Assembly: GCF_008065095.1 (NCBI RefSeq)
Contig: NZ_CP042911.1
Coordinates: 1,410,001-1,442,000, forward strand
Source: Gemmata obscuriglobus
Lineage (GTDB): Bacteria > Planctomycetota > Planctomycetia > Gemmatales > Gemmataceae
Direction: 5' to 3'
DNA: 32,000 nucleotides
Below, piece by piece: positions 2,169-24,297 of this stretch. The position numbers were made by a program, and so were the translations under genes. Every line of letters starts with the position of its first letter. Positions within the stretch are counted from its first letter, which is position 1. Below the pieces are notes generated by a model. It made no database searches. It had not been told where the DNA came from and was given only the letters and a program-made list of their open reading frames with translations.

Positions 2169-2484
2169 GGTGGTCACCCCCGGTCACCCTCTGGTCACCC
2201 CCGGGTGACCGCCGTAAGTCGTTGCGGCGCAAGGCTTGGTCACCCGCGGTCACCCCGGTCACACCCTCCCTACCCCCCGTAACACTCCGCCGCCCCCCCT
2301 GGCGCGTGTGTAACGAGCGCCGGACCACGTTACACCGGCGACACGTTACACCGGCGAGACGGTGTGCGATGGACAAAAACAGGAAACAGGGTGACCAGGG
2401 TGACCAGGGGTGACCACTCCTTGCGCCGCAAGGAGTTACGGCGGTCACACCCCCCTGCCAACCGGGTGACCGGGGGTGACCACC
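2169..2484. promoter_or_regulatory. Iteron-rich imperfect inverted repeat (arms ~2169-2264 and ~2389-2484) around a ~124-bp core. Putative replication origin or regulatory region.
   Basis: The reverse complement of 2389-2484 matches 2169-2264 along its length (GGTGGTCACCCCCGGTCACCC ... GTGACCGCCGTAA..TTGCGGCGCAAGG..TGGTCACCC..GGTCACCC). There are 11 perfect GGT(C/G)ACC heptamers (2172, 2182, 2194, 2204, 2238, 2248, 2390, 2399, 2409, 2465, 2475) plus 2 near copies. The core holds TGTAAC (2309) and two GTTACACCGGCGA direct repeats (2329, 2345). The region lies between the primase-helicase and the ParB-like gene. Confidence 0.5.
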
Positions 2485-2571
2485 GGAGCGCGGATACGGG
2501 GCGCGGCCCCGGTGCCATTGGCCGATGAGCGGCGCGTGTTGCGCGCGCCGCACCGGCGGAGGAGCAGTTGT

Positions 2572-3417: not shown

Positions 3418-3434
3418 AAAGGCAAAAGGCACTC

Positions 3435-4012
3435 GCCCTCCCTGAAGGGAGGGGGAGCAAAGGCAACCCACCCCGGCCCCTCCCTGAAGGGAGGGGGTGG
3501 CGCCGGGACGAGTGGTCCCGGAGCGGGAGGGGGCGCGTGCGGGGCAACCTACCCCCCGGCCCCCTCCCTAAAGGGAGGGGGTGGCGCCGAGAGGAGTGGT
3601 CCCGACGCGACACGCGCGCCGAGCGTAGACCAACCCCCGGCCCCTCCCTGCAGGGAGGGGAGCAAAGGCGCCCGGGCACCCGAGGCGGAATCGGTGCGCC
3701 CGTGCCTTCCTCCCCTCCCTGCAGGGAGGGGTTGGGGGTGGGTCGCCCCCGCGTGTTCCTTTCGCACCGGGACCAAGGCGGTCTTCCTCCCCTTCCCTTT
3801 AGGGAGGGGGCCGGGGGGTAGGTTGCCCCGCGCGCGCCTCTCGCACCGGGACCAGCGTTCCCGGCGCCACCCCTTCCCTTTAGGGAGGGGGCCGGGGGGT
3901 AGGTTGCCCCGCGCGCGCCTCTCGCACGGGGACCACTCCTCCCGGCGCCACCCCCTCCCTTCAGGGAGGGGGCCGGGGGGTAGGTTGTCTTTGGGGCCGG
4001 GGGGTAGGTTGC
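3435..4012. repeat. REP/BIME-like array B. Units are in reverse orientation from 3435 to ~3690 and in forward orientation from ~3700 to 4012, so the array is itself a large imperfect palindrome.
   Basis: Repeated CCCTCCCT(G/T)(A/C)AGGGAGGG hairpins with CAACC(C/T)ACCCC / GGGG(T)AGGTTG flanks. Segment 3488-3545 is the reverse complement of the array A spacer (GGTGGCGCCGGGACGAGTGGTCCCGGAGCGGGAGGG). Confidence 0.85.
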
Positions 4013-4042
4013 CTTTGCTCCCGTCATTCTTTCGGTGCGCGC

Positions 4043-4798
4043 ATGAAACTCACTCCCCGGCAGCAGCGGTTCGTGCAGGAGTACCTCGTGGACCGGAGCC
4101 CGTCGGGGGCGGCGGTGCGGGCCGGGTACAGCACGCACTCGGCGCGGAAGATCGGCGAGCAGAACCTGAAGAAGCCGCCGATCGCCGCGGCCATCGCGGC
4201 GGCCACCGGGTGCGCCAAGCCGCCCGAGCGGCCCGCCCTCACCCCGGACGCCGTGCTCCAGCGGCTGTGGCTCATCGCCACCGCCGACCCGAACGAGATC
4301 ATCGAGCACCGCCGCACCTGCTGCCGGTACTGCCACGGGGACGGGCACCGCTACCACTGGACCCAGAGCGAGCTGGACGCCGCCCGCGCCGCCCACGCCG
4401 AAGGCAAGAAGGCCGACGAGCCGTTCGACCCGCTGGGCGGCCCCGGGTACGACCCGCGCCGCCCCCCGGCCCCCAAGTGCCCCGAGTGCTTCGGGGACGG
4501 GGTGGGGGCGGTGTACGTGAAGGACACGCGGCGACTGTCCCCGGGCGCCCGCGCGCTGTGGGCCGGGGTGAAGCAGACCAAGGACGGGGTGGAAGCCCGG
4601 CTCAACGACCAGCAGGCCGCCCTGGTCACCGTGGCCCGGCACCTGGGTATGTTCACGGACGCCGGCGCGGCCAAAGACACGGACCTGCCCGACCTGTCGG
4701 GGATCACCGCCGATGAACTCGACCGACTGCTCGCTGCCCTGCGGCCCCTCTTCGCTCCGCCGCCTGTGGGGGGCGGCGGAACGGGCGGGCGCCCGTGA
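4043..4798 (+). CDS. terS: Terminase small subunit (Terminase_2/P27-like)
   Basis: The N-terminus MKLTPRQQRFVQEYLVDRSPSGAAVRAGYSTHSARKIGEQNLKKPPIAAAI is the canonical small-terminase HTH signature. The gene sits directly upstream of, and overlaps, the large subunit. Confidence 0.85.
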   Translation: MKLTPRQQRFVQEYLVDRSPSGAAVRAGYSTHSARKIGEQNLKKPPIAAAIAAATGCAKPPERPALTPDAVLQRLWLIATADPNEIIEHRRTCCRYCHGDGHRYHWTQSELDAARAAHAEGKKADEPFDPLGGPGYDPRRPPAPKCPECFGDGVGAVYVKDTRRLSPGARALWAGVKQTKDGVEARLNDQQAALVTVARHLGMFTDAGAAKDTDLPDLSGITADELDRLLAALRPLFAPPPVGGGGTGGRP

Positions 4799-6248
4799 CC
4801 TCACCCCGGGCGCGTGGAACGCCCGGTTCCTGCCGCACTACTTCGGCCGGTTCCCGCCCGCGGACTTCCACGCCCTGTTCGACCGCGAGCTGCACAACCT
4901 GCACCTCACCCGCGGGGTGAAGCGGTCCGACATCGCCCCCCGGGGCGGGGCCAAAAGTACGTGGAAGACCCTGGCGTACCCGCTCCGGTGCGCCGCCGAG
5001 GGGTGGGAGCCGTACACCCTGATCCTGTCCGACTCCAGCGACCAGGCCGACCTGCACCTGCGCCACATCCGCAAGGAGCTGGAAGAGAACGAGGTGCTGG
5101 CCGCGGCGTACCCGGAGGCGACCGGGCCGGGGCCGGAGTGGAAGCAGTCGCGCATCCGGCTGCGGAACGGGTCGCTGGTGGAAGCTCTGGGGAGCGGCAA
5201 AAAGGTGCGCGGCCGGCGGAACCGGAGTGAGCGCCCGAGTTTGATCATTTTCGACGACATTCAGAGCAACGAGGACGTGACCAGTCCGGTCATGCGCCGC
5301 CGCGCGTGGGAGTGGGCGACGCGCGAGGTGATCCCGGCGGGGAACGAGCGAACCAACTTCCTGGCGGTGGGCAGCGCGCTGCACCGGGAAGCGGTGGCGG
5401 TGCGGCTGGGGCAGCTCCCGGGGTGGTCCGGGCGGGTCCACCGGGCGGTGCATGCGTGGCCGGAACGGGCCGATTTGTGGGCGGATTTCGAGCGGATCGC
5501 CTCGAACATGGCGGACGACGGGCGGGAGGCGACGGCGCGGGCGTTCTACGCCGAGCACCGCGCGGAGATGGACCGGGGCGGGGTGGTGTACTGGCCGGAC
5601 CGCTTCCCACTCGTTGACCTGATGCTGGTACGCGCGGCGGTGGGCGGCAGCGCCTTCGAGAGCGAGTACCAGGGCGTACCGGGCACGCTGGAGGGGGCCG
5701 AGTGGCCGCCCGAGTGCTTCGACCGGCCGGACCTGTGGTTCACGGACTGGCCGTCGGATTTGGTGGTGCGGCTGCAAAGCCTGGACCCGTCGAAGGGTGT
5801 GAGCGACAAGGCGGACTACCAGGCGCACGTGAAGCTGGGGCTGTCGCGGTTCGGGCTGCTGTACGTGGACGCGGAGCTGCGTCGGGAGCCGGGCTGGGTG
5901 GAGCGGGCGATCGACATCGCGGCGGAGTGGCGGCCGGTGGAACTGGTGGCGGAGGCGAACAACACGATGGGGCTGCTGCGGCCGGCGGCGGAGCGGGTGC
6001 TGCGGGAGCGGCGGGAGCAGGGGCGGGTGCTGTCGTTCGTGTACACGGAGAAGATCAACAGCGCGCCGAAGGCGATCCGCATCCGGGCGCTGAACGACTA
6101 CCTGCGCCGCGGTCAGATCCGGGTGCGCGGCACCCCGGGCGGTCGGGTGCTGGTGGAGCAGCTCCGGGACTGGCCCAACGGCGACCACGACGACGGCCCG
6201 GACGCGCTGGCCACCGCCGTGATCCGCTTGCAGGAACTGGTGGCGTAA
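4713..6248 (+). CDS. terL: Terminase large subunit (ATPase plus RNaseH-like nuclease)
   Basis: Walker A-like PRGGAKSTW and Walker B LIIFDDIQ. C-terminal nuclease pattern LQSLDPSKG..DKADYQA, ELVAEANN, KAIRIRAL, WPNGDHDDGPDALATAV. The start is taken as ATG 4713 (86-nt overlap with terS). No better in-frame ATG/GTG lies before the conserved FHALFDREL, so the start is uncertain. Confidence 0.85.
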   Translation: MNSTDCSLPCGPSSLRRLWGAAERAGARDLTPGAWNARFLPHYFGRFPPADFHALFDRELHNLHLTRGVKRSDIAPRGGAKSTWKTLAYPLRCAAEGWEPYTLILSDSSDQADLHLRHIRKELEENEVLAAAYPEATGPGPEWKQSRIRLRNGSLVEALGSGKKVRGRRNRSERPSLIIFDDIQSNEDVTSPVMRRRAWEWATREVIPAGNERTNFLAVGSALHREAVAVRLGQLPGWSGRVHRAVHAWPERADLWADFERIASNMADDGREATARAFYAEHRAEMDRGGVVYWPDRFPLVDLMLVRAAVGGSAFESEYQGVPGTLEGAEWPPECFDRPDLWFTDWPSDLVVRLQSLDPSKGVSDKADYQAHVKLGLSRFGLLYVDAELRREPGWVERAIDIAAEWRPVELVAEANNTMGLLRPAAERVLRERREQGRVLSFVYTEKINSAPKAIRIRALNDYLRRGQIRVRGTPGGRVLVEQLRDWPNGDHDDGPDALATAVIRLQELVA

Positions 6249-6377
6249 GTGGGGGCGCATCACCTCGGGAACGAACGCGCCCGCCCTGGAACCGCGCACA
6301 CGCGCCGTGTACGTTTGCAGGAACACTTGAAGACGCGAGCCGCCGGACCGACCCGGAACGACTGGAGCGGAACTGCC

Positions 6378-7100
6378 GTGACCGTGGAAGAAGCCGCCCT
6401 CCTTCGCGCCATCGCCGCCGCGCCCGGCGACGTCACGGCCCGGCTCGCGTATGCGGACTGGCTCGACGAGCACGGCCGCGGCATCGAAGCCGCCTGGGTG
6501 CGCGACGAGGGCACGGCCCCGCCGTGGGTGACCGACCTTGCTGGCGAGGGTGACGGTCCTGGCCACAACGCCGGCAACGGTGGGGGCGGCGGCTACGGTG
6601 CCGGCGAGGGCGGTGGCCACGGCGGTGGCGACGGCCGCGGTGAGGGCGACGGCCGCGGTGAGGGCGATGGCGAGGGCGAAGGCGAGGGACACGGCTGCGG
6701 CCTCGGCCCCTACGGTGGGGGGGGCGGCAACGGTGCTGGCTACGGCAACGGCCGCGACTACGGCAACGGCGGCTACGGAACCCCAGACAAGCCCCACATT
6801 ACACACGAGGAAGTTTCCATGCCTTCACCCGGTGCGTATGTGATCGTGCGTTCGCGGGATCAGGGTTGCGTGTGCGGTGAGTACCGGGGTCACCACGGTC
6901 GGGAGGTGGTGCTGGGGAAGGCGCGTCAGATCTATTCGTGGGAGGGCGGTCGTCTGACGCTGTTCGACTTCGCGGTGGTGCCGGGGCCGTGCCGGCTGTC
7001 GCGCGAGGCGCCGGGCGAGGTGGTGATGCTGGAGGCGTGCGGCATCATCCCGACGACGCCCGAGGTCGAGGCGTTCCTGCGCGCGCACCCGGGCGAGTGA
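6378..7100 (+). CDS. TIGR02996-type N-domain / Gly-Asp-rich variable core / conserved C-domain protein (paralog P1)
   Basis: GTG 6378 gives VTVEEAALLRAIAAAPGDVTARLAYADWLDEHGRGIEAAWVRDEG, aligned with the MTDPDEAALLRAI starts of the paralogs. The C-terminal 93 aa (MPSPGAYVIVRSRDQGCVCGEYRGHHGREVVLGKARQIYSWEGGRLTLFDFAVVPG..EACGIIPTTPEVEAFLRAHPGE) are almost identical in P1-P5. Confidence 0.8.
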   Translation: MTVEEAALLRAIAAAPGDVTARLAYADWLDEHGRGIEAAWVRDEGTAPPWVTDLAGEGDGPGHNAGNGGGGGYGAGEGGGHGGGDGRGEGDGRGEGDGEGEGEGHGCGLGPYGGGGGNGAGYGNGRDYGNGGYGTPDKPHITHEEVSMPSPGAYVIVRSRDQGCVCGEYRGHHGREVVLGKARQIYSWEGGRLTLFDFAVVPGPCRLSREAPGEVVMLEACGIIPTTPEVEAFLRAHPGE

Positions 7101-7105
7101 CACCC

Positions 7106-7816
7106 ATGACCGACCCCGACGAAGCCGCGCTGCTCCGCGCCATCGCCGCCGTGCCGGGCGATGTGACGGGGCGGCTCGCGTATGCGGACTGGCTCGACGA
7201 GCACGGGCGCGGGATCGAAGCCGCCTGGGTGCGCGACGAGGGCTTACCCCCGCCCGGCGTGACCGAACTTGCTGGCGACGGTGAAGGCGCTGGTGCGGGT
7301 GACGGCGGCGGCGATGGTGACAACGACCGGGGTCACAACGACGACCTCAACAACGGCCACGGCGATGGCACCGGCAGCGGTGAAAGCCGCGGCGGTTTCG
7401 GCTACTGCGACATCGACGGCACCGGTAGCGGCTTGGAAAGCGGTTACGCCCGCGGCTATGGGAACGGCGGTGGCTACGGCCACGGCGGCTACGGAACCCC
7501 AAACAAGCCCCACATTACACACGAGGAGGTTCCCATGCCGTTGCCGGGTGCGTATGTGATCGTGCGTTCGCGTGACCAGGGTTGCGTGTGCGGCGAGTAC
7601 CGGGGTCACCACGGGCGGGAGGTGGTGCTGGGGAAGGCGCGTCAGATTTATTCGTGGGAGGGCGGTCGGCTGACGCTGTTCGACTTCGCGGTGGTGCCGG
7701 GTGCGTGCCGGCTGTCGCGGGAGGCGCCGGGGGAGGTGGTGATGCTGGAGGCGTGCGGGATCATCCCCACCACGCCCGAGGTCGAGGCGTTCCTGCGGGC
7801 ACACCCGGGCGAGTGA
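7106..7816 (+). CDS. TIGR02996-type N-domain / variable core / conserved C-domain protein (paralog P2)
   Basis: ATG 7106 lies 5 nt after the P1 stop. Same N- and C-terminal blocks. The core (GDGEGAGAGDGGGDGDNDRGH..GFGYCDI.GTGSGLE.GYARGYGNGGGYGHGGYG) is nearly identical to P5. Confidence 0.85.
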   Translation: MTDPDEAALLRAIAAVPGDVTGRLAYADWLDEHGRGIEAAWVRDEGLPPPGVTELAGDGEGAGAGDGGGDGDNDRGHNDDLNNGHGDGTGSGESRGGFGYCDIDGTGSGLESGYARGYGNGGGYGHGGYGTPNKPHITHEEVPMPLPGAYVIVRSRDQGCVCGEYRGHHGREVVLGKARQIYSWEGGRLTLFDFAVVPGACRLSREAPGEVVMLEACGIIPTTPEVEAFLRAHPGE

Positions 7817-7820
7817 GCCC

Positions 7821-8576
7821 ATGACCGACCCCGAAGAGGCCGCCCTCCTTCGCGCCATCGGCGCGGCACCCGGCGAGTTCACGGCGCGGCTCGCGTACGC
7901 GGACTGGCTCGACGAGCACGGCCGCGGCCTCGAAGCCGCCTGGGTGCGCGACGAGGGCACGGCCCCGCCCCGGGTGACCGAACTCGGTGGCAGCGGCCAC
8001 GGCGAGGGCAAAGGCAACGGCGACGGCCAGAGCGACGGCTGCGACTACAGCGACGACGACGACCGTCACGGCGACGACGGCAGCCACGGGGACGGCTACG
8101 GCTACGGCTACGGCGGTCGCAGCTACAGCCACGGCGTCTACGGCCACGGCTACAGCAGCGGCCGCGGCGACGGCCACGGCTACGGCAGCGGCTTAGGCGG
8201 CCGCGGAATCGGCGTAGGCGAAGGGGACGGCGGCCGCGCCGGCCGCATCGCCACACGAAAGCTTCAACACCTGATCCCCCACGAGGAAGTTCCCATGCCG
8301 GTTTCGGGTGCGTATGTGATTGTGCGTTCGCGGGACCAGGGTTGCGTGTGCGGGGAGTACCGGGGCCACCACGGGCGCGAGGTGGTGCTGGGGAAGGCGC
8401 GTCAGATCTTCTCCTGGGAGGGCGGTCGGCTGACGCTATTCGACTTCGCGGTGGTGCCGGGTGCGTGCCGGCTGTCGCGTGAGGCGCCGGGCGAGGTGGT
8501 GATGCTGGAGGCGTGCGGGATCATCCCGACCACGGCTGCGGTGGAAGCGTTCCTGCGGGCGCACCCAGGGGAGTAG
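7821..8576 (+). CDS. TIGR02996-type N-domain / variable core / conserved C-domain protein (paralog P3)
   Basis: ATG 7821 lies 4 nt after the P2 stop. Conserved ends with a different, longer core (GHGEGKGNGDGQSDGCDYSDDDDRHGDDGSHGDGYGYGYGG...). Shares LQHLIPH with P4. Confidence 0.85.
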   Translation: MTDPEEAALLRAIGAAPGEFTARLAYADWLDEHGRGLEAAWVRDEGTAPPRVTELGGSGHGEGKGNGDGQSDGCDYSDDDDRHGDDGSHGDGYGYGYGGRSYSHGVYGHGYSSGRGDGHGYGSGLGGRGIGVGEGDGGRAGRIATRKLQHLIPHEEVPMPVSGAYVIVRSRDQGCVCGEYRGHHGREVVLGKARQIFSWEGGRLTLFDFAVVPGACRLSREAPGEVVMLEACGIIPTTAAVEAFLRAHPGE

Positions 8577-8580
8577 CACC

Positions 8581-8785
8581 ATGACCGACCCCGAAGAGGC
8601 CGCGCTGCTGGCCGCCATCATCGCCGCGCCCGCCGACGACACCCCGCGCCTCGTGTACGCCGACTGGCTCCAGGAGCAGGCCGCGGGATCGAAGCCGCCT
8701 GGGTGCGCGACGAGGGCACGGCCCCGCCCCGGGTGACCGACCTTGCCGGCGACGGTGAAGGCGCTGGCGCGGGCGAAGGGGGAGG
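8581..8785 (+). pseudogene. Chimeric, frameshifted remnant of a TIGR02996-family paralog
   Basis: 8581-8683 is near-identical to the 5' end of the 14657 gene (MTDPEEAALLAAIIAAPADDTPRLVYADWLQEQAA). At GGCCGC it switches, one base short, to the P1-P5-type sequence GGGATCGAAGCCGCCTGGGTGCGCGACGAGGGC...GGCGACGGTGAAGGCGCTGGCGCGGGCGAAGG. The original frame stops at about codon 46, and similarity is lost after ~8785. Confidence 0.75.
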
Positions 8786-8855
8786 GGTGTGTGGCACTGC
8801 GGCGGAAACCGCCCGCCGCCGGTACGGGAGCGCCGGGCGCTCCGGTCGCGCGGGC

Positions 8856-8883
8856 TTGACACGGGAGCGAATTTTACTATGCG
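8856..8883 (+). promoter_or_regulatory. Candidate sigma70-like promoter for the CHAT cassette (TTGACA, 16 nt, TATGCG)
   Basis: This is the only AT-richer patch between the paralog remnant and the first cassette gene. The -35 is perfect and the -10 is weak. Planctomycete promoter rules are poorly known. Confidence 0.2.
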
Positions 8884-8966
8884 GCGGAACCTGACTGCAT
8901 CCGCGGGTGGCGTGCGCTACGCTTGGTACGTTCGCCGTTCACTCCCAACCGTGGCTCGGGGGCAGA

Positions 8967-9302
8967 ATGTCCGACACCGCGCGCGTTGCCGAGCCGCTCA
9001 CGCTGGAACTCGACTTGCCCGGCCCGGCCGACGGGCGGTACGTGGCCCGCGCGGGAGTGCCGTTCGCGTTACGCGTGAGGGGCGACCTCGGTTCCCCGGT
9101 GCCCGCGGAGGTGCTGGTCCTCGGGGCCGGGGTGCGGGCGACGCCGGTGGGCCGCGACGTGCGGCTCCCCGCCGACGCCACCTTCCTTGTGTGCTGCTCG
9201 GCCGCGGGGCCGGCGCACCTACACGTCGAGCTGCTCGTCGGCGGGGAAGAGATGGCCTCCGCCGCGGCGTACCTGTCGGTGCTCCCCGCGCCGGTCGTAT
9301 GA
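8967..9302 (+). CDS. Small beta-rich (Ig/beta-sandwich-like) hypothetical protein, first gene of the CHAT cassette
   Basis: ATG 8967 in frame with track ORF 8907..9302. Alternating beta-strand-like segments (LTLELDL, FALRVRG, AEVLVLGAGVRATP, FLVCCSAAGPAHLHVELLVGG, AAAYLSVLP) resemble the C-terminal domain of the 9957 gene. Confidence 0.55.
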   Translation: MSDTARVAEPLTLELDLPGPADGRYVARAGVPFALRVRGDLGSPVPAEVLVLGAGVRATPVGRDVRLPADATFLVCCSAAGPAHLHVELLVGGEEMASAAAYLSVLPAPVV

Positions 9303-9405
9303 GCGTGCATTCGGCCGACCCTGTCTGGACGCCGGTTGCCAGTTCGACTATCACAAGGGTTTCCAGCCGACCTCTCCGACCGTGCCCTTGTCCGGAGTGA
9401 TCGCA

Positions 9406-9960
9406 ATGCCCATTCGCTCATCGACGGCCCGCGCGCTCCAGCTCGGTGCGGTGATCGCCACCGCGGAGCAGGTGCAGCAAGGTCTGCTTCACGGCCCCGA
9501 CATCACGCTCGGCAGCCGCGCGCGAGCCGCGGCGGGAATCGAAGAGGTCCGCACCCGGCTCCTCGCCGCGGCCCGCGACTTGGACCGGCGGGTGGGTGAG
9601 CGGCTCCGGTCGAGCGTGTCGTGGTGGGTCCAGTTCGTCCTGCTCGTCTTCTTGGTCGCGCTCGGGGTCGGGTTCGTGTTCGCGGCCGTGCGCCTCATGA
9701 CCAGTGAGGACCCGTCGAACTTAACGTACCTGTTCACCGTCGGCCCGCCGCCGCTGGTGGTCTTCCTTCTGAACCAGTTGCGGCGCATGGAGGTCGATCG
9801 GATCACCGTGAGCCTGCTGGCGGCCCGGTTCGTGCCCCGGATCGAGGCGGCCGGGTCGATCGCCGAACTGGAGGCGATCGCGCGCGAAATGTCCGACTCC
9901 TTGCGGCTCCTCACGAACGCGCCGCGCCCGGCCGCCCCGGGGGCAGGACCCCGAACATGA
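9406..9960 (+). CDS. Membrane protein with two predicted TM helices (hypothetical)
   Basis: ATG 9406 is preceded by GGAG (about 9 nt). Hydrophobic stretches WWVQFVLLVFLVALGVGFVFAAV and YLFTVGPPPLVVFLLNQL. The stop overlaps the next start (ATGA at 9957-9960). Confidence 0.6.
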   Translation: MPIRSSTARALQLGAVIATAEQVQQGLLHGPDITLGSRARAAAGIEEVRTRLLAAARDLDRRVGERLRSSVSWWVQFVLLVFLVALGVGFVFAAVRLMTSEDPSNLTYLFTVGPPPLVVFLLNQLRRMEVDRITVSLLAARFVPRIEAAGSIAELEAIAREMSDSLRLLTNAPRPAAPGAGPRT

Positions 9961-11375
9961 GCAAGAAGATCAAGGAGCTGGAGCTGAACAGCCTCCGCAA
10001 GACCTTCCAGGGCGTGCGGGACTTCGTGCTGCTGGAGCCGCTGAAGCTGGACTCCGCGGCCGACTACACGCTTCGCAAGAGCCTTCGCGAGAAGAAGGTT
10101 CGCGTGAAGATGGTCAAGAACAGCTTCGTGCGGAAGGTGTTCAGCGAGAACGGCATGACGGTGGAGACGGGCTCCGGCCCGACCCTTCTGTGCTGGGGGG
10201 CCGACAGCGCGAAGTCCCTCGGGACCGCGGTGGAGGCGGCTCTCAAGCTGATCCGCCCGGACCTGAAGGTGCCCGAGAAGGTCAAAGAGAAGGTCGGCAT
10301 CGCCGACGGCGAGACCATGACCCTGGCGCAGCTCGCCAAGGTGCCGACCAAGCAAGAGGCGATCGGCGAAGTCCTCGCCGCGGTGCTCGCGCCGGGCGCC
10401 GCGCTGGCCGGGGCGCTCACGGCGCCGGGTGCGGACCTCGCGGGCATCCTCAAGGCGGTCCAGGGCGTGCGGGCGCAGAGGACCCCCGCGGCCGTCGCGG
10501 TGGGGGCGACGGATTCGGCGTGGGCGAGTGAACCCGCCCCTTCTGTGCCGGGTCCGTTCGTGCGGCCGGCGGCCGGCGCGGGCGCCCGGTTGCCCTTGCC
10601 TTCTGTGCCGCGGCCGCCGAACAATGGTGTAGAGCCAGGGGCCGCTCCGGTCCGCTCTTCGGTTCGGAACGCGGAACCGGACCCGGAGGTCGCGCTGCGA
10701 GCGCTGGAGCGGTGGCTGCCGCTGTTGCACGGGATCGGCGCCGGACGGGCGCCGGAGCGCGTGCGCACGATCTGGGGCGAGCACGTCCGGAACGAGCTGT
10801 TCCGCAGCCCCCCGGCGGTCGCCTGGCTCGATCAGTGCTTGGCCGCCCGGCCGTCATTTGCACCTCAGAGGGCCGCGGCACTCGAGGCGCTGCGGCGGGT
10901 GCGGGCCGAGGTGCGGGACGAGTTGACCGGGTTGGGCGAACAACTCGCCCCTCAAGCGGAGGGAACATCGCCCCCCAACGGGGGAAGCGAAATGGATCAG
11001 TTCATCCTGGTTCTGGAGATCGGCGCGCGGGACGGCGGACCCTTGACCGTGGGGCACGAAGCGACCCTGCGGGCGGTGGTCGCGAAAGCTGACGTGGCGA
11101 ACACGGAAGATCACTACAACGGCCACTACAACTGGGTGCCGGCGGGGCCCGGGGAGGTGGTGGCGGTGCGGGTGTTCGCGACCGGCAGCCGGGTGCTCCC
11201 GGCCGAGCGGTACCTCTCGACGCCCCCGCAACCGGGCCAGTCCGTCGAGTTCACGTTCCGGCCCCGGGCCGCCGGCCGGCAGTACCTGCACCTGGCCCTC
11301 GTGGACCGGCACGACTCCGACGTGTACACGGCGTCCCAATACTTCACCGTCGAGCCGGCCGCCGCTGTCGGCTGA
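9957..11375 (+). CDS. Ribosomal protein uL10-like N-domain fused to a Pro/Ala-rich linker, a helical segment and a C-terminal beta-sandwich-like domain
   Basis: Residues 1-~170 follow uL10 by eye: VLLEPLKLDSAADYTLRKSLREKKVRVKMVKNSFVRKVF, GPTLLCWG, LAKVPTKQEAIGEVLAAVLAPGAALAGAL. No rplK/A/L or rpoB neighbours. The C-terminal 128 aa (from MDQFILVLEIG, nt 10992) are beta-rich. Confidence 0.7.
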   Translation: MSKKIKELELNSLRKTFQGVRDFVLLEPLKLDSAADYTLRKSLREKKVRVKMVKNSFVRKVFSENGMTVETGSGPTLLCWGADSAKSLGTAVEAALKLIRPDLKVPEKVKEKVGIADGETMTLAQLAKVPTKQEAIGEVLAAVLAPGAALAGALTAPGADLAGILKAVQGVRAQRTPAAVAVGATDSAWASEPAPSVPGPFVRPAAGAGARLPLPSVPRPPNNGVEPGAAPVRSSVRNAEPDPEVALRALERWLPLLHGIGAGRAPERVRTIWGEHVRNELFRSPPAVAWLDQCLAARPSFAPQRAAALEALRRVRAEVRDELTGLGEQLAPQAEGTSPPNGGSEMDQFILVLEIGARDGGPLTVGHEATLRAVVAKADVANTEDHYNGHYNWVPAGPGEVVAVRVFATGSRVLPAERYLSTPPQPGQSVEFTFRPRAAGRQYLHLALVDRHDSDVYTASQYFTVEPAAAVG

Positions 11376-11441
11376 GCCCGGCGCCGCGCGCCGCGAACGC
11401 GCGGCCTCGGCGCCCGCCACCCTTTCGGTCACGCCACCGTC

Positions 11442-12962
11442 ATGCTCCGCGCCCCCACGACCGCCGTTCTGTCGCCCCCCCCCCAGGAGCGGTCGCTCCG
11501 GGTGGATCTGTTCTACCGCGATCCGAGCGCCCCGAGCGCCTACGTGGTGCTCAACGTGCCGCTGGACCCGACGTACGGGACGGCGCACCGCGAGTACCTG
11601 GACCGGCACCGGTACGACACCTCGGACGGGAGCCCACCAACGGCCCTGTTCGAGGGCGTCGTCGACGGCTCGTTTGCGACCTTCCGGGACCTGATCCGCG
11701 CGGCACTGGACGCGCACGTGGAGGCCGCCCACCGCCGCGACCCGGCGCTGTACGCGCTGTACGATCCGGCCCTGCCGAGGGCCGGGGACCGGGAGCTGGG
11801 CGCGTTCTTGCGCCCGCTCGCGGTTCACGGGTACGAGATGTACCGGAACCTGTTCGAGCGGCTCGTCGGGGACCTGCGGGCGCCGAGCGACCTCCCGCCC
11901 GAGGAGCGGCCCGACTGGGACCAGACCGAGGCGCACGCGCTGGTCCGCGAGTACCTGGCGAGCGCCTCTCCCAAAGTGGTGTTCAAGGTGCCGCAAGAGG
12001 ACCGGGCGGACCCCGTCAACCGGCCGCACCTGCCGCCGCCGGCGGACCACTGGACCGAACCGTTCCCGTGGCGGCTCCTGTTCGACCGGCACCCCGACAA
12101 GTTGCCCGCCGCGCCCGACCTGTTCGGCCGGCGCCCCGACGAACTGCCCTCCGCGCCCGAGCTGGCGGCGGCGTGCTGGGGCCTGAAGTACCAGCTCGAG
12201 ACCGCCTTCAAGTGGACCCAGGGGCAGTCGACCCTGCGGGCGTTCGAGAATCGGCCGCCCCGGATCGTCGCGGCCACGTGCCCGTCGGCCGATCCGGCCG
12301 ATCGGCACCGCGATCGGGGCCACCCGTTCCAGCGGCCTGGGGTGGACACGACCCACCACGACCAACGGGACGACTTCCGCGCCGCCCTCCGCCACGTCGA
12401 CGCGGACGCGGTATCGTTCTTCGGCCACGCGGAGGTCGCACGGGCGAACGTGCAGACCGGCAGCTCGATCGAGTTCCGGCCCCCCCGGTCCGGCCCCGCG
12501 GACTGGGAGCAACTGACGGCCGCCGACATGGACGGGGCGAGGATCCCGAAGTACCAGCGCAAGCCGGTGCTGGTGTTCCTCAACGGGTGCGGGACCGGTC
12601 CGCTGGACGGGTTAGGACCGACGACCGTCTTCGGGCAGTTCACCAACAATGGGCCGGTCCGGGGGCACCGGGTGCGGTGCGTGGCGGTCGTCCACGAGGC
12701 GCCCATCACATTCGGGCTCGAACTGGGCCAGGAGTTCTGGAAGCAGGTGCTCCCCGCCGCACCGGGGGCGGGCGGGGAACCGGTGGGGGCGGCTCTGCTG
12801 GCCGCGCGGCAGCACATGGTCCGGGCGTACAACAACCCGCTCGGGGTGCTGTACGCGCTGTTCGGCGACGGCCTGTTGCGGTACCACCCGGGCGCGCCGT
12901 CACACGGGGCCATCGGGTCCGGCGGCCCGCCGGCGGGGCCGAGCGCCACGGCCGGCGCGTAG
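11442..12962 (+). CDS. CHAT-domain caspase-like cysteine protease
   Basis: His/Cys dyad context VSFFGHAEV ... (about 55 aa) ... KPVLVFLNGCGTGP, and the C-terminal NPLGVLYALFGDGLLRY typical of CHAT domain ends. Good third-position GC bias. Confidence 0.7.
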   Translation: MLRAPTTAVLSPPPQERSLRVDLFYRDPSAPSAYVVLNVPLDPTYGTAHREYLDRHRYDTSDGSPPTALFEGVVDGSFATFRDLIRAALDAHVEAAHRRDPALYALYDPALPRAGDRELGAFLRPLAVHGYEMYRNLFERLVGDLRAPSDLPPEERPDWDQTEAHALVREYLASASPKVVFKVPQEDRADPVNRPHLPPPADHWTEPFPWRLLFDRHPDKLPAAPDLFGRRPDELPSAPELAAACWGLKYQLETAFKWTQGQSTLRAFENRPPRIVAATCPSADPADRHRDRGHPFQRPGVDTTHHDQRDDFRAALRHVDADAVSFFGHAEVARANVQTGSSIEFRPPRSGPADWEQLTAADMDGARIPKYQRKPVLVFLNGCGTGPLDGLGPTTVFGQFTNNGPVRGHRVRCVAVVHEAPITFGLELGQEFWKQVLPAAPGAGGEPVGAALLAARQHMVRAYNNPLGVLYALFGDGLLRYHPGAPSHGAIGSGGPPAGPSATAGA

Positions 12963-13135
12963 CACCTCTGCACCACTGATCCGTGGGACACATCGTAGGG
13001 TCTTGGGCTGCCGGATCGCTCCTCATTTACGGGTACGACGCTGGTACACGAGACGGTGCTCGCCCGCGCGCGTGATCCCGGGCTCGTCGAGCGGCGCGCC
13101 GCCGGCACGTGGCGCCTGGAACCATCGGGGCGAGT

Positions 13136-13939
13136 ATGACCACCGACGAGGCCGCGCTGCTTCGCGCCATCGCCGCGCACCCGGGCGAGGTCACCGCGCG
13201 GCTCGCGTATGCGGACTGGCTCGACGAGCACGGCCGCGGGATCGAAGCCGCCTGGGTACGCGACGAGGGCACGGCCCCGTGGGTGACCGAACTCGGCGGC
13301 GGCGATGGTGACGGTGGCTGCGACGCCGACGGCACCGGCACCGGCGATGACCACGGCAGCGGTAACGGCGATGGTGACGGCGACGGCTACGGTGACAGCA
13401 ACGGCGACGGCTACGGCGACGGTACGAACTGCGGCGACGGCGCCGGCCGCGGTGACGGCCGCGGCTACGGCGCCGGCGGCGGGGGCAGCGAAATCCACGA
13501 CTACAGCATCCGCGGCGGCAACCACGGCTACGGCCGCGGCTACGGTTACTGCTACGGCGACAGCGACGGCGACGGCGACGGCAACGGTCAAGGCCACGGC
13601 TACAACCCCATCGCCGCGCACAATCTGCAACACCTGATCCCCCACCAGGAGGTTCACATGCCGGAGTCGGGTGCGTACGTGATCGTGCGTTCGCGGGATC
13701 AGGGTTGCGTGTGCGGTGAGTACCGGGGGCACCACGGCCGTGAGGTGGTGCTGGGGAAGGCGCGCCAGATCTACTCGTGGGAGGGCGGTCGGCTGACGCT
13801 GTTCGACTTCGCGGTGGTGCCGGGTCCGTGCCGGCTGTCGCGTGAGGCGCCCGGGGAGGTGGTGATGCTGGAGGCGTGCGGGATCATCCCGACCACGCCC
13901 GAGGTCGAGGCGTTCCTGCGGGCGCACCCGGGCGAGTGA
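13136..13939 (+). CDS. TIGR02996-type N-domain / variable core / conserved C-domain protein (paralog P4)
   Basis: ATG 13136 (MTTDEAALLRAIAAHPGEVTARLAYADWLDEHGRGIEAAWVRDEG). Longest core (GDGDGGCDADGTGTGDDHGSGNGDGDGDGYGDSNGDGYGDG...). Conserved C-terminal 93 aa. Confidence 0.85.
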   Translation: MTTDEAALLRAIAAHPGEVTARLAYADWLDEHGRGIEAAWVRDEGTAPWVTELGGGDGDGGCDADGTGTGDDHGSGNGDGDGDGYGDSNGDGYGDGTNCGDGAGRGDGRGYGAGGGGSEIHDYSIRGGNHGYGRGYGYCYGDSDGDGDGNGQGHGYNPIAAHNLQHLIPHQEVHMPESGAYVIVRSRDQGCVCGEYRGHHGREVVLGKARQIYSWEGGRLTLFDFAVVPGPCRLSREAPGEVVMLEACGIIPTTPEVEAFLRAHPGE

Positions 13940-13944
13940 CACCC

Positions 13945-14652
13945 ATGACCGACCCCGACGAAGCCACGCTGCTTCGCGCCATCGGCGCCTACCCGGGCGA
14001 GGTGACGGCCCGGCTCGCGTATGCGGACTGGCTCGACGAGCACGGCCGCGGCCTCGAAGCCGCCTGGGTGCGCGACGAGGGCACGGCCCCGCCGTGGGTG
14101 ACCGACCTTGCCGGTGACGGTGAAGGCGCTGGTGCGGGTGACGGCGGCGGCGATGGTGACAATGACCGCGGCCACGGCGACCTCAACAACGGCCCCGGCG
14201 ACGGCGCCGGCAGCGGTGAAGGCCGCGGCGGTTTCGGCTACTGCGACATCGCCGGCACCGGTAGCGGCTTGGAAGGCGGTTACGCCCGCGGCTACGGGAA
14301 CGGCGGGGGCTACGGCCACGGCGGCTACGGAACCCCAAACAAGCCCCACATTACACACGAGGAGTTTCCCATGCCTTCACCCGGTACGTATGTGATCGTG
14401 CGTTCGCGGGATCAGGGCTGCGTGTGCGGTGAGTACCGGGGTCACCACGGGCGGGAAGTGGTGCTGGGGAAGGCGCGTCAGATCTACTCGTGGGAGGGCG
14501 GTCGTCTGACGCTGTTCGACTTCGCGGTGGTGCCGGGGCCGTGCCGCCTCTCCCGTGAGGCGCCGGGGGAGGTGGTGATGCTGGAGGCGTGCGGGATCAT
14601 CCCGACGACGCCCGAGGTGGAAGCGTTCCTGCGAGCGCACCCGGGCGAGTAG
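13945..14652 (+). CDS. TIGR02996-type N-domain / variable core / conserved C-domain protein (paralog P5, near-twin of P2)
   Basis: ATG 13945 lies 5 nt after the P4 stop. Core and ends are nearly identical to P2. Confidence 0.85.
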   Translation: MTDPDEATLLRAIGAYPGEVTARLAYADWLDEHGRGLEAAWVRDEGTAPPWVTDLAGDGEGAGAGDGGGDGDNDRGHGDLNNGPGDGAGSGEGRGGFGYCDIAGTGSGLEGGYARGYGNGGGYGHGGYGTPNKPHITHEEFPMPSPGTYVIVRSRDQGCVCGEYRGHHGREVVLGKARQIYSWEGGRLTLFDFAVVPGPCRLSREAPGEVVMLEACGIIPTTPEVEAFLRAHPGE

Positions 14653-14656
14653 CACC

Positions 14657-15442
14657 ATGACGGACCCCGACGAGGCCGCGCTGCTGGCCGCCATCATCGC
14701 CGCGCCCGCCGACGACACCCCGCGCCTCGTGTACGCCGACTGGCTCCAGGAGCAGGCCGCCGACGCCACCTGCGGCGAGTGCGACGCCGGCCGCGTGTTC
14801 GGCCGCGACGTGCAGTCGCTCCGGCCCGCCGGGGCGTGGCACACCTGCCGCCGGTGCGGCGGGTCCGGCCGCCTCACCGACGGCCGCGCGGGCCGGGCCG
14901 AGTTCATTCGCGTGCAGTGCGAACTCGCGGCGCTGAACGACCGGCACCGCCGCGGCGACGCGACCCCCGCGGACGCCGAGCGGCTGGAGGCGCTCCGGCG
15001 GCGCGAGGGGCAACTGACCATGACCGTCTACCCGCGCGAGATCTGGCCCACCTTCGACTGGCTCCGCGGGCTCGGCATCAACCCCTACAACTGTGTGCTC
15101 GATTCCCGCGGCGGCTGGATCGCGGCGGTCACCTGCGACGCCGCGACCTGGATCGCCCACGGGGACGCGATCCGCGCCCGGCACCCGGTCACCGCCGTGC
15201 GGCTGACGACGGTGCCGGAGGTCGGTTGGGTGCCGCCGGCGCACGGGCGCGACGGCTACTTCGCGTTCGCCCGCGACCCGGCCGCCCGGCGCATCACCTG
15301 GGCCGAGTACCGGGCCGGCTGCGCGGCGCACGCCCCGCCCGGCGAGCCGGACCCGAGCGCCTCCGAATACAACCCGGATGTGGGCGTCCTGCTGGCGTGC
15401 CGGTTCGGAGACGGTGTCGATTTCGAAGTCCCGTTGCACTGA
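14657..15442 (+). CDS. Canonical TIGR02996 repeat-companion domain protein with CxxC..CxxCxGxG zinc-ribbon-like segment (P6)
   Basis: MTDPDEAALLAAIIAAPADDTPRLVYADWLQEQ ... RAEFIRVQCELAAL is the full TIGR02996-type signature as I remember it. CGECDAG and CRRCGGSGRL motifs lie between. ATG is 4 nt after the P5 stop. Confidence 0.8.
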   Translation: MTDPDEAALLAAIIAAPADDTPRLVYADWLQEQAADATCGECDAGRVFGRDVQSLRPAGAWHTCRRCGGSGRLTDGRAGRAEFIRVQCELAALNDRHRRGDATPADAERLEALRRREGQLTMTVYPREIWPTFDWLRGLGINPYNCVLDSRGGWIAAVTCDAATWIAHGDAIRARHPVTAVRLTTVPEVGWVPPAHGRDGYFAFARDPAARRITWAEYRAGCAAHAPPGEPDPSASEYNPDVGVLLACRFGDGVDFEVPLH

Positions 15443-15481
15443 CACGCCCCTGATACATGAGTCCACCCGCGGTGTCGCTCT

Positions 15482-15550
15482 CTTGACGAGCCGCGACCGC
15501 CAGGGAGCGGTGCCACGTCTCCCGCTCCCTGGCGGTCGCGGCTCGTCAAG
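15482..15550. other. Perfect 29-bp-stem hairpin (11-nt loop) 40 nt downstream of P6. Possible terminator or recombination/processing site.
   Basis: CTTGACGAGCCGCGACCGCCAGGGAGCGG (15482-15510) is the exact reverse complement of 15522-15550. No U-tract follows on either strand. Confidence 0.6.
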
Positions 15551-15793
15551 AAAGCGGCGGTATTACCGGGTGCGTGTGTGAGGCGGCGTGTGCCGGGCGC
15601 GGGGCACCGTATGCGTGCGTAGTAGCAACAGAATGCCGCGCTCGCGAAGACCGCCGGAAAAATGTTTTGCGGCGAAGACTGCGGTGCGAATGACTTTCAG
15701 CTACAATTTTCGCGGCACCGTGGTTATCCCAACGCCCGGTGCGCCTCGCGATTCGTGAGGCAGGAGGAAACGCGTGGCTGGCGGAGGTGGCCG

Positions 15794-16153
15794 ATGAAAC
15801 AGATTACCGCCCGAACACCACTCCGAATTGTGTTTTACCGTGACAAGGCCGACCGCAGTGTCGTTGTTGCCCACTGTCTGGAGTTCGATCTGCTCGGCTT
15901 CGGTGACACCAAGCACGAAGCCATGAACATGTTGTGCGAGGCGATCGAACTTCAGGTCAGCAGCGCGGTCAAGGAACAATCGCCGAACGTCCTTTTCACG
16001 CCCGCACCGAGCGAATACTACGTCATGTTTGCGAAGGGCAAGGACGTGGCGATCGGCGAAATGGCGATCGAATTCGAGGCGCCGGACTACAAGATCGAAG
16101 GCGTGAGCGCCCGCGAGTACGAGGACGAGGACGCCGAGTGCGCGACGGCCTGA
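15794..16153 (+). CDS. hicB: HicB-like antitoxin (UPF0150 fold)
   Basis: ATG 15794 with GGAGG 6 nt upstream. VVVAHCLEFDLLGFGDTKHEAMNMLCEAIELQV matches the HicB N-domain pattern (..a.cpel.g..s.G.T.eEA..n..eAi.l). Directly upstream of a HicA-like ORF. GC is lower than the surroundings. Confidence 0.6.
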   Translation: MKQITARTPLRIVFYRDKADRSVVVAHCLEFDLLGFGDTKHEAMNMLCEAIELQVSSAVKEQSPNVLFTPAPSEYYVMFAKGKDVAIGEMAIEFEAPDYKIEGVSAREYEDEDAECATA

Positions 16154-16168
16154 TGCGAGGAGTCGCCC

Positions 16169-16417
16169 GTGGACCGTCCGCTCTCATTGCGTCAACTCAG
16201 ACGAGCCTTGTTCGCTTTTGGGGTGTTTGAGGATACCGGCCGGGGAAAGGGCTCTCATACGATGTTCTATAAGTACATCGATGGTCACAAGGTGAGCTTC
16301 CCGGTCCCGACGAGCCACGACACTCTTCCCACCGCTTACGCCCGGGCGGCTCGCCGAAAGTTCAAGCTGACCGCCGAAGACGGAGTTACTGACCAGCAGT
16401 TCTACGACAACACCTGA
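16169..16417 (+). CDS. hicA: HicA-like mRNA interferase toxin
   Basis: LRQLRRALFAFGVFEDTGRGKGSHTMFYK...VSFPVPTSHDTLPTAYARAARRKFKL follows the HicA/YcfA pattern (l...Gf...r.kGSH..f......tvP.H..l). GTG start with GAGGAG upstream. Confidence 0.75.
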   Translation: MDRPLSLRQLRRALFAFGVFEDTGRGKGSHTMFYKYIDGHKVSFPVPTSHDTLPTAYARAARRKFKLTAEDGVTDQQFYDNT

Positions 16418-21947: not shown

Positions 21948-22026
21948 TGGACAAGGGGGGCTTGACTCTCCTATAATTTCATGGGCTCTCTACGGGCATT
22001 GAAAAATTCATCTGCCAATTTATATT
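21948..22026 (+). promoter_or_regulatory. AT-rich region with two sigma70-like promoter candidates upstream of the three-gene operon
   Basis: TGGACA (21948), 18 nt, TATAAT (21972); and TTGAAA (21999), 16 nt, TATATT (22021). This is the most AT-rich stretch of the window, 85-160 nt upstream of ATG 22111. Confidence 0.35.
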
Positions 22027-22110
22027 GGATGTCTTTTCCCTGAATTACGGTGCGCCCCACAATTCAGAGAAAAACGAACGCTACGGCGGCGGGACCGCAA
22101 GGCAAATGAT

Positions 22111-24150: not shown

Positions 24151-24297
24151 TGTGACAAGGGACAGAGGTGCATGCAAATTCATCCTCTAGTCGAACCGCT
24201 AAGCAATCCTCAAGGCTCAAGAAACTGCAAAAGAAACGCAATATCGGCCAACTCTGACAAGCACTTCTCCCCGGCCGGCCGGTGACATCGGCCGGGG

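Follow-up and report, generated by a model that had tools for sequence, protein, structure and literature searches.

A tandem gene array between terL and portal

We describe here a tandem array of five paralogous genes, P1 to P5, in a 32,000-nucleotide stretch of the Gemmata obscuriglobus genome (RefSeq assembly GCF_008065095.1, contig NZ_CP042911.1, positions 1,410,001 to 1,442,000), which we refer to as the window. The array and an adjoining sixth gene, X (P6), sit between the genes for the terminase large subunit (terL) and the portal protein of a prophage, a location that a sequence-only reading of this DNA had proposed and that the identification of both border genes confirms. The prophage setting itself is recognised from terL, portal, a terminase small subunit gene (terS) and an upstream D5-type primase. 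Open reading frames (ORFs) with their translations, together with hidden Markov model (HMM) matches, confirm that the five genes, which start at 6378, 7106, 7821, 13136 and 13945 and are all on the plus strand, are packed 4-5 nt apart and share N- and C-terminal domains; the distances for P1-P2, P2-P3, P4-P5 and P5-X are 5, 4, 5 and 4 nt, respectively. Each of these A-type genes encodes a TIGR02996 N-domain, a disordered core of 96-129 amino acids (aa) built on a glycine-other residue (Gly-X) pattern, and a near-invariant DUF6948 C-domain, whereas X joins a TIGR02996 N-domain to a body unlike that of P1-P5. The features of the array and its borders are the following:

4713-6248, plus strand: terminase large subunit gene terL, left border of the accessory slot (phrog_38, E 1e-76; 98-99% nucleotide identity with the prophages of strains JC717 and JC673)
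6378-7100, plus strand: P1, A-type; N-domain 6378-6512, Gly-X core 6513-6818, DUF6948 6819-7097
7106-7816, plus strand: P2, A-type, GobsT_11850; N-domain 7106-7243, core 7244-7534, DUF6948 7535-7813
7821-8576, plus strand: P3, A-type, GobsT_11860; N-domain 7821-7958, core 7959-8294, DUF6948 8295-8573
8581-~8787, plus strand: remnant of a sixth A-type gene (seventh copy overall), truncated by an insertion
~8788-13135, plus strand: insertion of 4.35 kb that splits the array, with four unrelated ORFs (8907-9302, ~9400-9960, 9957-11375 and 11442-12962)
13136-13939, plus strand: P4, A-type; N-domain 13136-13270, core 13271-13657 (period-6 array, 49.5 copies), DUF6948 13658-13936
13945-14652, plus strand: P5, A-type, GobsT_11930, core twin of P2; N-domain 13945-14082, core 14083-14370, DUF6948 14371-14649
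14657-15442, plus strand: X (P6); TIGR02996 with an inserted CxxC...CxxCxGxG zinc ribbon and a C-terminal domain of ~150 aa
17195-19993, plus strand: portal gene, right border of the slot (Phage_portal_2, E 2.5e-13; phrog_21, E 2e-107)

The TIGR02996 model (NCBIfam, rpt_mate_G_obs; curated cutoff 29.05 bits) matches P1-P5 at 61.8-67.4 bits over residues 4/5-44/45 and X at 67.2 bits, so that the earlier assignment of all six N-domains to this family stands. The description of the gene at 14657 as a TIGR02996 protein with a different body is likewise correct, as a Pfam scan of the six array proteins found no DUF6948 match in X. The C-domain, which had been likened to a small phage-associated domain, proved in an HMM search against Pfam to be DUF6948 (PF22253): P1-P5 score 90-93 bits against a gathering threshold of 27 bits and cover positions 2-84 of the 85-position model. 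Its 93 aa are 92.5-98.9% identical among the five copies, in agreement with the near-invariance first noted by eye. The middle segments are of low complexity and vary between copies, also as described, with approximately 34% glycine, D, H, R and Y as the next commonest residues, 20-35 GxG motifs and 3-6 [G/S][Y/F][G/S] motifs per core, and a net charge of -7 to -18. The cores of P2 and P5 are indeed near-twins (88% identity), while of the motif NLQHLIPH said to be shared by P3 and P4 only LQHLIPH is common, the preceding residue being K in P3 and N in P4. P1-P5 contain no signal peptide or hydrophobic segment, judged by the lack of any run of at least 8 hydrophobic or small residues, and their N-termini are acidic helices; from the absence of a hydrophobic run we infer a cytoplasmic location.

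P1-P5 are already catalogued as hypothetical proteins, the P2 protein being 100% identical to GobsT_11850 of G. obscuriglobus, and as phrog_18306, the sole PHROGs family to match them (full-length matches, E 1e-128 to 1e-139), which was evidently built from this or a near-identical prophage. They are true members of TIGR02996 and DUF6948. PADLOC returned nothing for the array, X or the insertion, an Rfam search gave no match, and sequence searches of the PDB produced low-complexity noise only.

With 23 relatives as input, AlphaFold2 models P2 as a three-helix N-domain (pLDDT 75-86), a central stretch at residues 52-141 with pLDDT below 50, and a five-strand barrel with a C-terminal helix (pLDDT 80-91). 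The top 50 PDB matches of the C-domain in Foldseek are all Sm/LSm proteins, with target-normalised TM-scores mostly of 0.5-0.7 and probabilities mostly of at least 0.95; the best of them, SmAP1 (1i8f), has a target TM-score of 0.66 and a probability of 1.0, with an E-value of only 4e-3. In BFVD, Foldseek retrieved DUF6948 phage proteins at E 1e-6 and, lower in the list, Sm-like and Hfq-like phage proteins. Sm folds tend to form rings, and Sm/Hfq folds bind RNA. In their FUS-like composition and predicted disorder (pLDDT about 30), the cores resemble phase-separating low-complexity regions, a likeness already drawn from the sequence.

What had been taken for a split array of five genes is indeed split, but the cause is the 4.35-kb insertion, and the array also holds the additional truncated copy at 8581-~8787. 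This remnant starts 4 nt past P3 and loses homology at ~8787. Its X-type N-terminus (AAIIAAPADDTPRLVYADWLQEQAA) is followed by a 1-nt deletion, which shifts the reading frame, and then by the A-type sequence GIEAAWVRDEG...GDGEGAGAGEGGG; the N-domain HMM matches its ORF at 8581-8736 with an E-value of 2e-22. An in-frame counterpart of this X/A chimera exists as the fifth array gene of strain JC673 (J673_5), and the insertion is missing from both sister prophages (L001 and L002, described below). Together, the remnant and the insertion indicate that the array formerly comprised six A-type genes, one of which was destroyed, producing two half-arrays.

Two ORFs of the insertion deserve a separate mention. 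The one at 9957-11375 (472 aa), in a four-gene operon, begins with ~169 residues that are a paralogue of ribosomal protein uL10 (NCBIfam L10, E 1.9e-22, 79.9 bits for a cutoff of 85; Thermus thermophilus L10, E 2e-7), followed by ~300 unassigned aa. The other, at 11442-12962 (506 aa), has no family or PDB match and carries a 42-nt tandem duplication at 12077-12160; by eye, a His...Cys pair ('FFGHAE' ... 'VFLNGCGTG') is reminiscent of CHAT/caspase-like peptidases.

Variation of the cores among sister prophages

A scan of genome contigs returned only G. algarum JC673. The prophages of this strain (L002) and of Gemmata sp. JC717 (L001) have the same terS-terL-array-X-...-portal order as the window, with five A-type genes and one X each and without the insertion, and all 15 array genes in the three genomes are intact, five per prophage. 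The flanks of the array in the window are 94-99% identical to those of the two relatives, and most cores are unalignable. In the comparison of the first array gene with its orthologues, which share with P1 a GTG start followed by 'VTVEE', identity is 98-99% at the 3' end of terL, 93-95% in the N-domain, ~60% with ~50 gap columns in the core, and 91-96% in the C-domain. Conserved ends around a hypervariable core, read at first from the paralogues, are thus also seen among orthologues. Invariance of related strains in both copy number and cores had been named as evidence against that reading; the intact copy number is always 5, but the cores vary.

The C-domains of the five copies differ at dS 0.2-0.4 with a dN/dS of 0.02-0.10. 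Their invariance is therefore due to purifying selection on every copy and not to recent conversion, and a dS in this range speaks against gene conversion as its source. In the P2 clade, core dS lies below that of the attached C-domain, and core dN/dS is 0.25-0.76. Only two core types recur among the 15 cores: that of P2, found in Go2 (P2), Go5 (P5), J717_3 and J673_5 with 88-96% identity and at array positions 2, 5, 3 and 5, and that of P4, found in Go4 (P4) and J673_2 with 75% identity. Since the nearest neighbours differ among the N-domain and the 5' and 3' halves of the C-domain, the genes are mosaics. These mosaic relationships, the twin cores at array positions 2, 3 and 5, and the X/A chimeric N-domains bear out the exchange between copies that had been suspected from the window.

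These data also speak to the idea that the array is decaying prophage junk, a silent relic whose ends are alike through recent duplication or gene conversion. This would agree with the frameshifted copy, the insertion and, as described below, a portal fusion and the lack of recognisable capsid or tail genes. However, 15 of 15 genes in three genomes are intact, and the dS and dN/dS values of the C-domain exclude both recent conversion and neutrality, which makes a relic very improbable.

The core DNA is a degenerate (GGC-NAC/AGC)n hexanucleotide array with a period of 6 and up to 49.5 copies in Tandem Repeats Finder (TRF). NAC codons (Y, H, N, D) and Ser account for most non-Gly residues at the X positions. 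TRF periods in the cores are 6, 9, 12, 18 and 24, with no 4- or 5-nt tracts, and the longest homopolymer of the array, G8 at 6717-6724 in the P1 core, is its sole frameshift-prone tract. Because the repeat unit is 6 nt long and in frame, changes alter the length and composition of the core rather than an on/off state. The conserved 135-nt and 280-nt flanks, 85-95% identical between paralogues, make homology available for the observed shuffling and chimeras.

These properties set the array apart from contingency or variable-surface gene families, in which exposed proteins undergo stochastic on/off or antigenic switching and with which the sequence-only reading had compared it. A variable cassette within conserved flanks, tandem paralogues, exchange between copies and the one G8 tract in the P1 core are what such a family would display. 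The comparison is nevertheless not supported, given that the proteins lack a signal peptide and any transmembrane or lipobox-like segment, that the repeats are in frame with a 6-nt unit, that no invertase or diversity-generating retroelement (DGR) was seen, and that copy number is 5 throughout. Moreover, the array is phage-encoded, and its relatives are single-copy genes in early or recombination modules of phages. We consider switching of this kind highly improbable. Two further candidates were rejected. A DGR is at odds with cores that differ by many indels, and no reverse transcriptase domain was found among the window ORFs scanned, a set that covered part of the small ORFs; a precursor of the RiPP or microcin type was discarded as modification or export genes are not nearby.

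A DUF6948 and Gly-X module in phages

With a single Gemmata C-domain as query, we obtained 140 matches in a representative set of 1.84 billion proteins, mostly stand-alone proteins of 90-130 aa, and the DUF6948 profile has at least 553 matches in IMG/VR, where the A-type profile matched one jumbo contig. Among GenBank phages, neither Megablast of 4700-15500 nor tblastn of the Gemmata C-domain found a match; these phages were reached only with more central DUF6948 sequences as queries. We defined the module as a (Gly-X)n run of at least 12 aa adjoining or fused to DUF6948 on the same strand, searched for within 350 nt, and P1-P5 fall under this definition with the run fused upstream of DUF6948. 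A (Gly-X)n ORF adjoins DUF6948 in 9 of 9 independent GenBank phage lineages carrying the domain (NK-7, the Taid group, phiPLPE, CV-1-33, Vibrio phage IKEMa6-1, two spring viromes and two faecal viromes). The partner reads 'MKRWHKPSGSGSGSGYG…' in Ralstonia phage NK-7, where it is annotated as fibroin-like, and 'MSKLIKPEKYGSCYGYGSGSG…' in the Pectobacterium Taid group.

The census of IMG/VR covered the best 80 of at least 553 loci. A (Gly-X)n run lies beside DUF6948 in 79 of these 80, directly downstream in 78 of them, with a median length of 42 aa and a maximum of 106, and only 10 further runs of at least 12 aa occur elsewhere in the same loci. As one metagenome, 3300045988, dominates this sample, 79/80 overstates the number of independent lineages; independent of one another are the nine lineages from GenBank, along with L005, L011 and L012, which are metagenomic contigs. 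The X residue of the IMG/VR runs is S in 35%, Y in 33% and D in 20%, and the downstream gene starts ahead of the DUF6948 stop, the median overlap being 13 nt. The adjacency of the two elements across phages indicates that the hypervariable segment is not specific to Gemmata but is the obligatory partner of DUF6948, and that the Gemmata genes are a fusion of the two.

The length variation of the repeat is most easily seen in eight sibling Pectobacterium/Dickeya phages. Their DUF6948 gene is constant at 399 nt and 88-100% identical, and their (Gly-X)n genes measure 162, 204, 222, 222, 222, 252, 258 and 270 nt, the differences being multiples of 6, with a constant leader and tail around a reshuffled interior. 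Within each array one codon is used per residue and the codons differ between phages, so that with the same amino-acid pattern conservation is at the protein level. Gly codons are nearly all GGC in 68 of 79 IMG/VR loci despite a locus GC content of 32-62%, and contigs with 32-50% GC make no exception; homogenisation of the array accounts for codon uniformity within an array, but not for the recurrence of GGC across phages. It could be argued from this recurrence that the repeat acts as a nucleic acid, the GGC-rich array being an RNA or DNA ligand of the Sm-like protein and the ORF incidental. RNA binding by Sm/Hfq folds and the several open frames of the repeat, among which gene callers choose different ones, would suit this proposal. 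On the other hand, the frame of the fused genes is fixed by the flanking domains and is always Gly-X, other phages use GGG/TCT/TAT/GAT or GGT with the amino-acid pattern unchanged, and a conserved Met-leader and translational coupling favour a protein product. A role of the repeat as nucleic acid is therefore quite improbable.

The run is not always a protein of its own. In 52 IMG/VR loci it forms the N-terminal part of a larger protein with a shared ~150-aa domain, for which no Pfam or PDB match was found. In L020 (2273-2794), L022 and 50 IMG/VR loci, the partner protein often opens with an amphipathic leader of 15-17 aa (ME.LEDRIKAFLS..), continues with the Gly-X run and ends in the C-terminal domain of ~150 aa. 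By eye, a likeness can be seen between this leader and helix 3 of the A-type N-domain (EAAWVRDEG / AAWLREEG). Gene annotation has frequently obscured the repeat: the (Gly-X)n gene is unannotated in Iodobacter phage phiPLPE (L018 1164-1409), gene25 of Chlorobiaceae phage CV-1-33 (L019 3264-3521) is called in a different frame from (Gly-X)n, and the fused A-type gene at ~9440-10282 of L011 is split in the annotation, with a wrong-frame '(MGLG)n' call.

Other fused A-type relatives are found as single-copy genes on phage-like contigs from metagenomes, in regions for early functions, replication or recombination. A tandem of DUF6948, (Gly-X)n and DUF6948, each 124 aa long, occupies 9225-10375 of L012, another phage contig, so that Gemmata is not alone in having the module duplicated locally. 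The position of the module matters for the view that these proteins are virion components, with Gly-X segments forming silk-like or polyglycine-II fibres or decorating the capsid or tail, and with variable cores altering adsorption, much as might be expected from the example of T-even gp38. The location of the Gemmata genes between terL and portal, the annotation of the NK-7 partner as 'fibroin heavy chain-like' and the repetitive, glycine-rich composition would all fit such a role. Elsewhere, however, the module has early, recombination or integrase genes for neighbours and is located away from structural genes; furthermore, the core is disordered in the AlphaFold2 model and the array proteins match no structural PHROG. 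We regard a virion function as improbable.

X, for its part, has at least 919 homologues. Its AlphaFold2 model (pLDDT 91.3), to which no fold in the PDB corresponds, has the first two helices of the A-type N-domain, the zinc ribbon as an insertion, long helices and an alpha/beta domain. In L011, an unrelated temperate contig, a fused A-type gene comes after another TIGR02996 protein and overlaps the next gene, of X type, by 4 nt. In L014, an X homologue with 78% identity is separated from terL by a 1061-aa LRR-Roc(GTPase)-COR-nucleosidase (2304-5489; MTA/SAH-nucleosidase-like), an NLR/ROCO-like cargo in the slot occupied here by the array. This protein was also considered as a carrier of TIGR02996, and was rejected as it has no match to the domain. 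The differing contents of the slot mark it as a cargo site, with X as a recurrent but not obligatory companion.

In this regard, the array could be an arms-race effector or decoy whose TIGR02996 N-domain mimics that of the large host TIGR02996 family, including LRR/ROCO-like members, and docks into host complexes, with amplification and diversification of the cores being adaptive as in a gene accordion. This alternative overlaps the explanation that we favour and differs mainly in the reason for core variation. It draws on phage accessory regions in which the genes lie next to known genes for counter-defence or recombination, namely Gad2, Gp157, Erf and methylases (L013, L012, L004), on the LRR-Roc-COR-nucleosidase in the terL-to-X slot of the related phage L014, on five paralogues under purifying selection, and on the size of the X/TIGR02996 family (at least 919 members). 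Against it stand the lack of a PADLOC match, an intact copy number of 5 in all three prophages, a core dN/dS of 0.25-0.76 in the one alignable clade, which denotes relaxed rather than positive selection, and unfused (Gly-X)n genes that are equally variable in phages whose hosts lack TIGR02996. On balance we judge an arms-race effector or decoy unlikely.

The remaining recognised genes of the packaging region and the slot are:

4043-4798, plus strand: terminase small subunit gene (Pfam Terminase_2, E 7.5e-26; phrog_51)
15662-16153, plus strand: small accessory gene, no assignment, syntenic with JC717 and JC673
16169-16417, plus strand: small accessory gene, HicA-like, syntenic with JC717 and JC673

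The two small genes in the gap between X and portal (15662-16417), kept in the JC717 and JC673 prophages, are probably a HicB/HicA-type toxin-antitoxin pair; the ORF at 16169-16417 matches Pfam HicA at E 1e-3, below the cutoff, and phrog_353 'toxin'. The portal ORF at 17195-19993 encodes 932 aa, while the corresponding region of JC717 (L001 10467-15418) holds a 919-aa portal, a 106-aa ORF and a 547-aa portal-like ORF. Positions 18408-18866 of the window match L001 13824-14282, yet also lie within a long collinear match that ends at L001 12129, which suggests that the portal gene is a deletion fusion relative to JC717, apparently produced by recombination between internal repeats, and that the prophage is defective. 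No capsid or tail genes were recognised in Pfam and PHROGs scans of the window ORFs. Further downstream, a low-GC island at 22000-24200 (53-58% against ~72%) contains three ORFs without Pfam or PHROG matches, one of which (22770-23657) weakly matches the PADLOC candidate PDC-M32A (E 2.8e-8). The sole tRNA of the window, tRNA-Arg(CCT) at 25218-25293, lies just past the part of the window that is phage-like and low in GC, and the element may have its attachment site here; nearby are the first recognisable host-type genes, for a GNAT protein (24298-24891) and a response regulator (25834-26403), and a bacteriophytochrome kinase gene (28170-30662, minus strand).

Interpretation and comparison with known systems

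In architectural and evolutionary terms, the array very probably represents five intact paralogues and one wrecked copy of a fused phage accessory gene. This gene joins a TIGR02996 three-helix N-domain, a disordered acidic (Gly-X)n segment and a predicted Sm-like DUF6948 barrel. The (Gly-X)n segment and DUF6948 form a conserved two-part phage module that elsewhere is mostly encoded by two translationally coupled genes, DUF6948 first; planctomycete phages carry the module fused in reverse order and preceded by a helical leader, and in this Gemmata lineage the fusion has been amplified five-fold. The core behaves as a coding mini- or microsatellite that changes by slippage in 6-nt steps and is also shuffled by unequal or ectopic recombination via the conserved N- and C-coding flanks. 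Selection would keep its composition (Gly alternating with D, Y, H, N or S, net negative charge, no hydrophobic residues) rather than its sequence. In each copy, both the N- and the C-domain are subject to strong purifying selection.

With respect to function, the Sm-like barrel might, by analogy, oligomerise and/or bind Gly-Tyr/Ser repeats, so that barrel and repeat, or the fused protein with itself or its paralogues, could build a polymeric network, gel or condensate. Alternatively, the outcome might be that a partner, from the host or a nucleic acid, is sequestered while infection proceeds. Through the helix bundle of TIGR02996, the proteins would be tied to the adjoining X or to TIGR02996-family proteins of the host. 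Predicted disorder, a composition with [G/S]Y[G/S] motifs and the ring-forming tendency of Sm folds point to a scaffold or condensate function, which we put forward as a tentative proposal. To the explanation as a whole, including a cytoplasmic multivalent scaffold, we assign a probability of about 50%. Going further, it is tempting to speculate, though this is doubtful at present, that the module is a widespread and apparently undescribed phage system in which an Sm-like barrel and a hypervariable polypeptide build a self-assembling network whose valency is retuned by hexanucleotide slippage, with the Gemmata array as its fused, five-fold version wired to TIGR02996.

Several observations weigh against this explanation. 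The Pfam scan (E<=1) of the six whole array proteins gave no Sm/LSm or Hfq match and DUF6948 as the only C-domain family, PDB sequence searches with the A1 and A2 profiles yielded no Sm protein, and the assignment to the Sm fold depends on a predicted model whose Foldseek E-values are modest; as sequence methods detect no relation, the 'Sm-like fold' is a structural prediction and homology is unproven. The ~150-aa tail domain in 52 loci means that the repeat could be a linker and not the active part. Compared with the S/Y/D repeats found in other phages, the cores in Gemmata are less regular and also contain R, H, C and E, and the Gemmata genes lie in the packaging region, not in the early region as in other phages. 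Furthermore, the prophage looks partly decayed, and with a portal gene that appears to have been fused by a deletion, and no gene recognised for capsid or tail, function in present-day G. obscuriglobus is not guaranteed. Finally, we found no publications on DUF6948, TIGR02996 or the module of DUF6948 and (Gly-X)n, and nothing relevant in the literature on glycine-rich or Sm-like phage proteins or on Gemmata prophages.

The array has implications beyond this locus. As a Rosetta-stone fusion, it ties DUF6948 to TIGR02996, a huge paralogous family in Gemmata and its relatives, and it draws attention to the fact that DUF6948 is almost never alone, its glycine-repeat partner being often missed or misframed by gene callers. 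In the sibling phages, the diversification of a viral protein by a coding microsatellite occurs naturally and is easy to score, and the Pectobacterium Taid group and Ralstonia NK-7 provide cultivable handles. If the proteins do form condensates or gels, they would represent a new phage means to organise or disarm the host cytoplasm; if they act as decoys, they would be a pointer to the function of the TIGR02996 family; and if the network interpretation is right, they would be a bacterial-virus counterpart of the ribonucleoprotein (RNP) granule scaffolds formed by LSm proteins with low-complexity regions.

The closest known relatives are the stand-alone DUF6948 genes with (Gly-Ser/Tyr/Asp)n neighbours of Taid (CDS0033/0032), NK-7 (XCO36016/XCO36015) and phiPLPE (gp84). 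They share with the Gemmata array the barrel family, the Gly-X partner and a slippage-type length variation. Whereas these systems are single-copy pairs of separate genes, barrel then repeat, with no TIGR02996 and with X almost only S, Y or D, the Gemmata array is fused, places the repeat before the barrel and behind TIGR02996, is repeated five-fold, and has an irregular core rich in H, N, R and C. Like TIGR02996 proteins of Gemmata, other Planctomycetota and Myxococcota, the A-type proteins begin with an N-terminal domain of ~45 aa followed by repetitive sequence. Typical TIGR02996 members continue into leucine-rich repeats or an X-type body. The A-type domain, in contrast, lacks the zinc ribbon of X, leads into a Gly-X repeat and DUF6948, and is phage-borne.

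More distant parallels concern architecture and mode of variation. In eukaryotes, Sm/LSm proteins with low-complexity tails, such as the RG tails of SmB, D1 and D3, LSm4, and LSm14/Edc3, have an architecture that underlies rings and RNP-granule scaffolding. The A-type proteins similarly join a small, predicted Sm-type barrel to a glycine-rich disordered region; this is an analogy, as no sequence homology is detectable and the tail is acidic Gly-Tyr/Asp/His rather than RG/RGG. As in bacterial contingency loci, coding repeat DNA is the source of fast heritable variation, but the unit is 6 nt, and there is neither expression switching nor surface targeting. T-even gp38 is a folded polyglycine-II sandwich at the tip of the tail fibre, encoded in the tail module, with glycine-rich motifs flanking hypervariable segments. 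The A-type proteins are likewise phage proteins with conserved glycine-rich elements alternating with hypervariable stretches, but the Gemmata region is predicted to be disordered and the genes are non-structural. The resemblances to LSm-plus-low-complexity proteins, gp38 and contingency repeats are functional analogies only. Gene accordions of the poxvirus type and phage accessory arrays also consist of a tandem viral accessory gene with diverged copies, but in the Gemmata array copy number is steady (5 in three prophages) and the copies diverge in a single low-complexity segment only. Compared with all of these, the array appears to be a new variant, fused, order-swapped, joined to TIGR02996 and amplified five-fold, of a module that itself appears to be undescribed.

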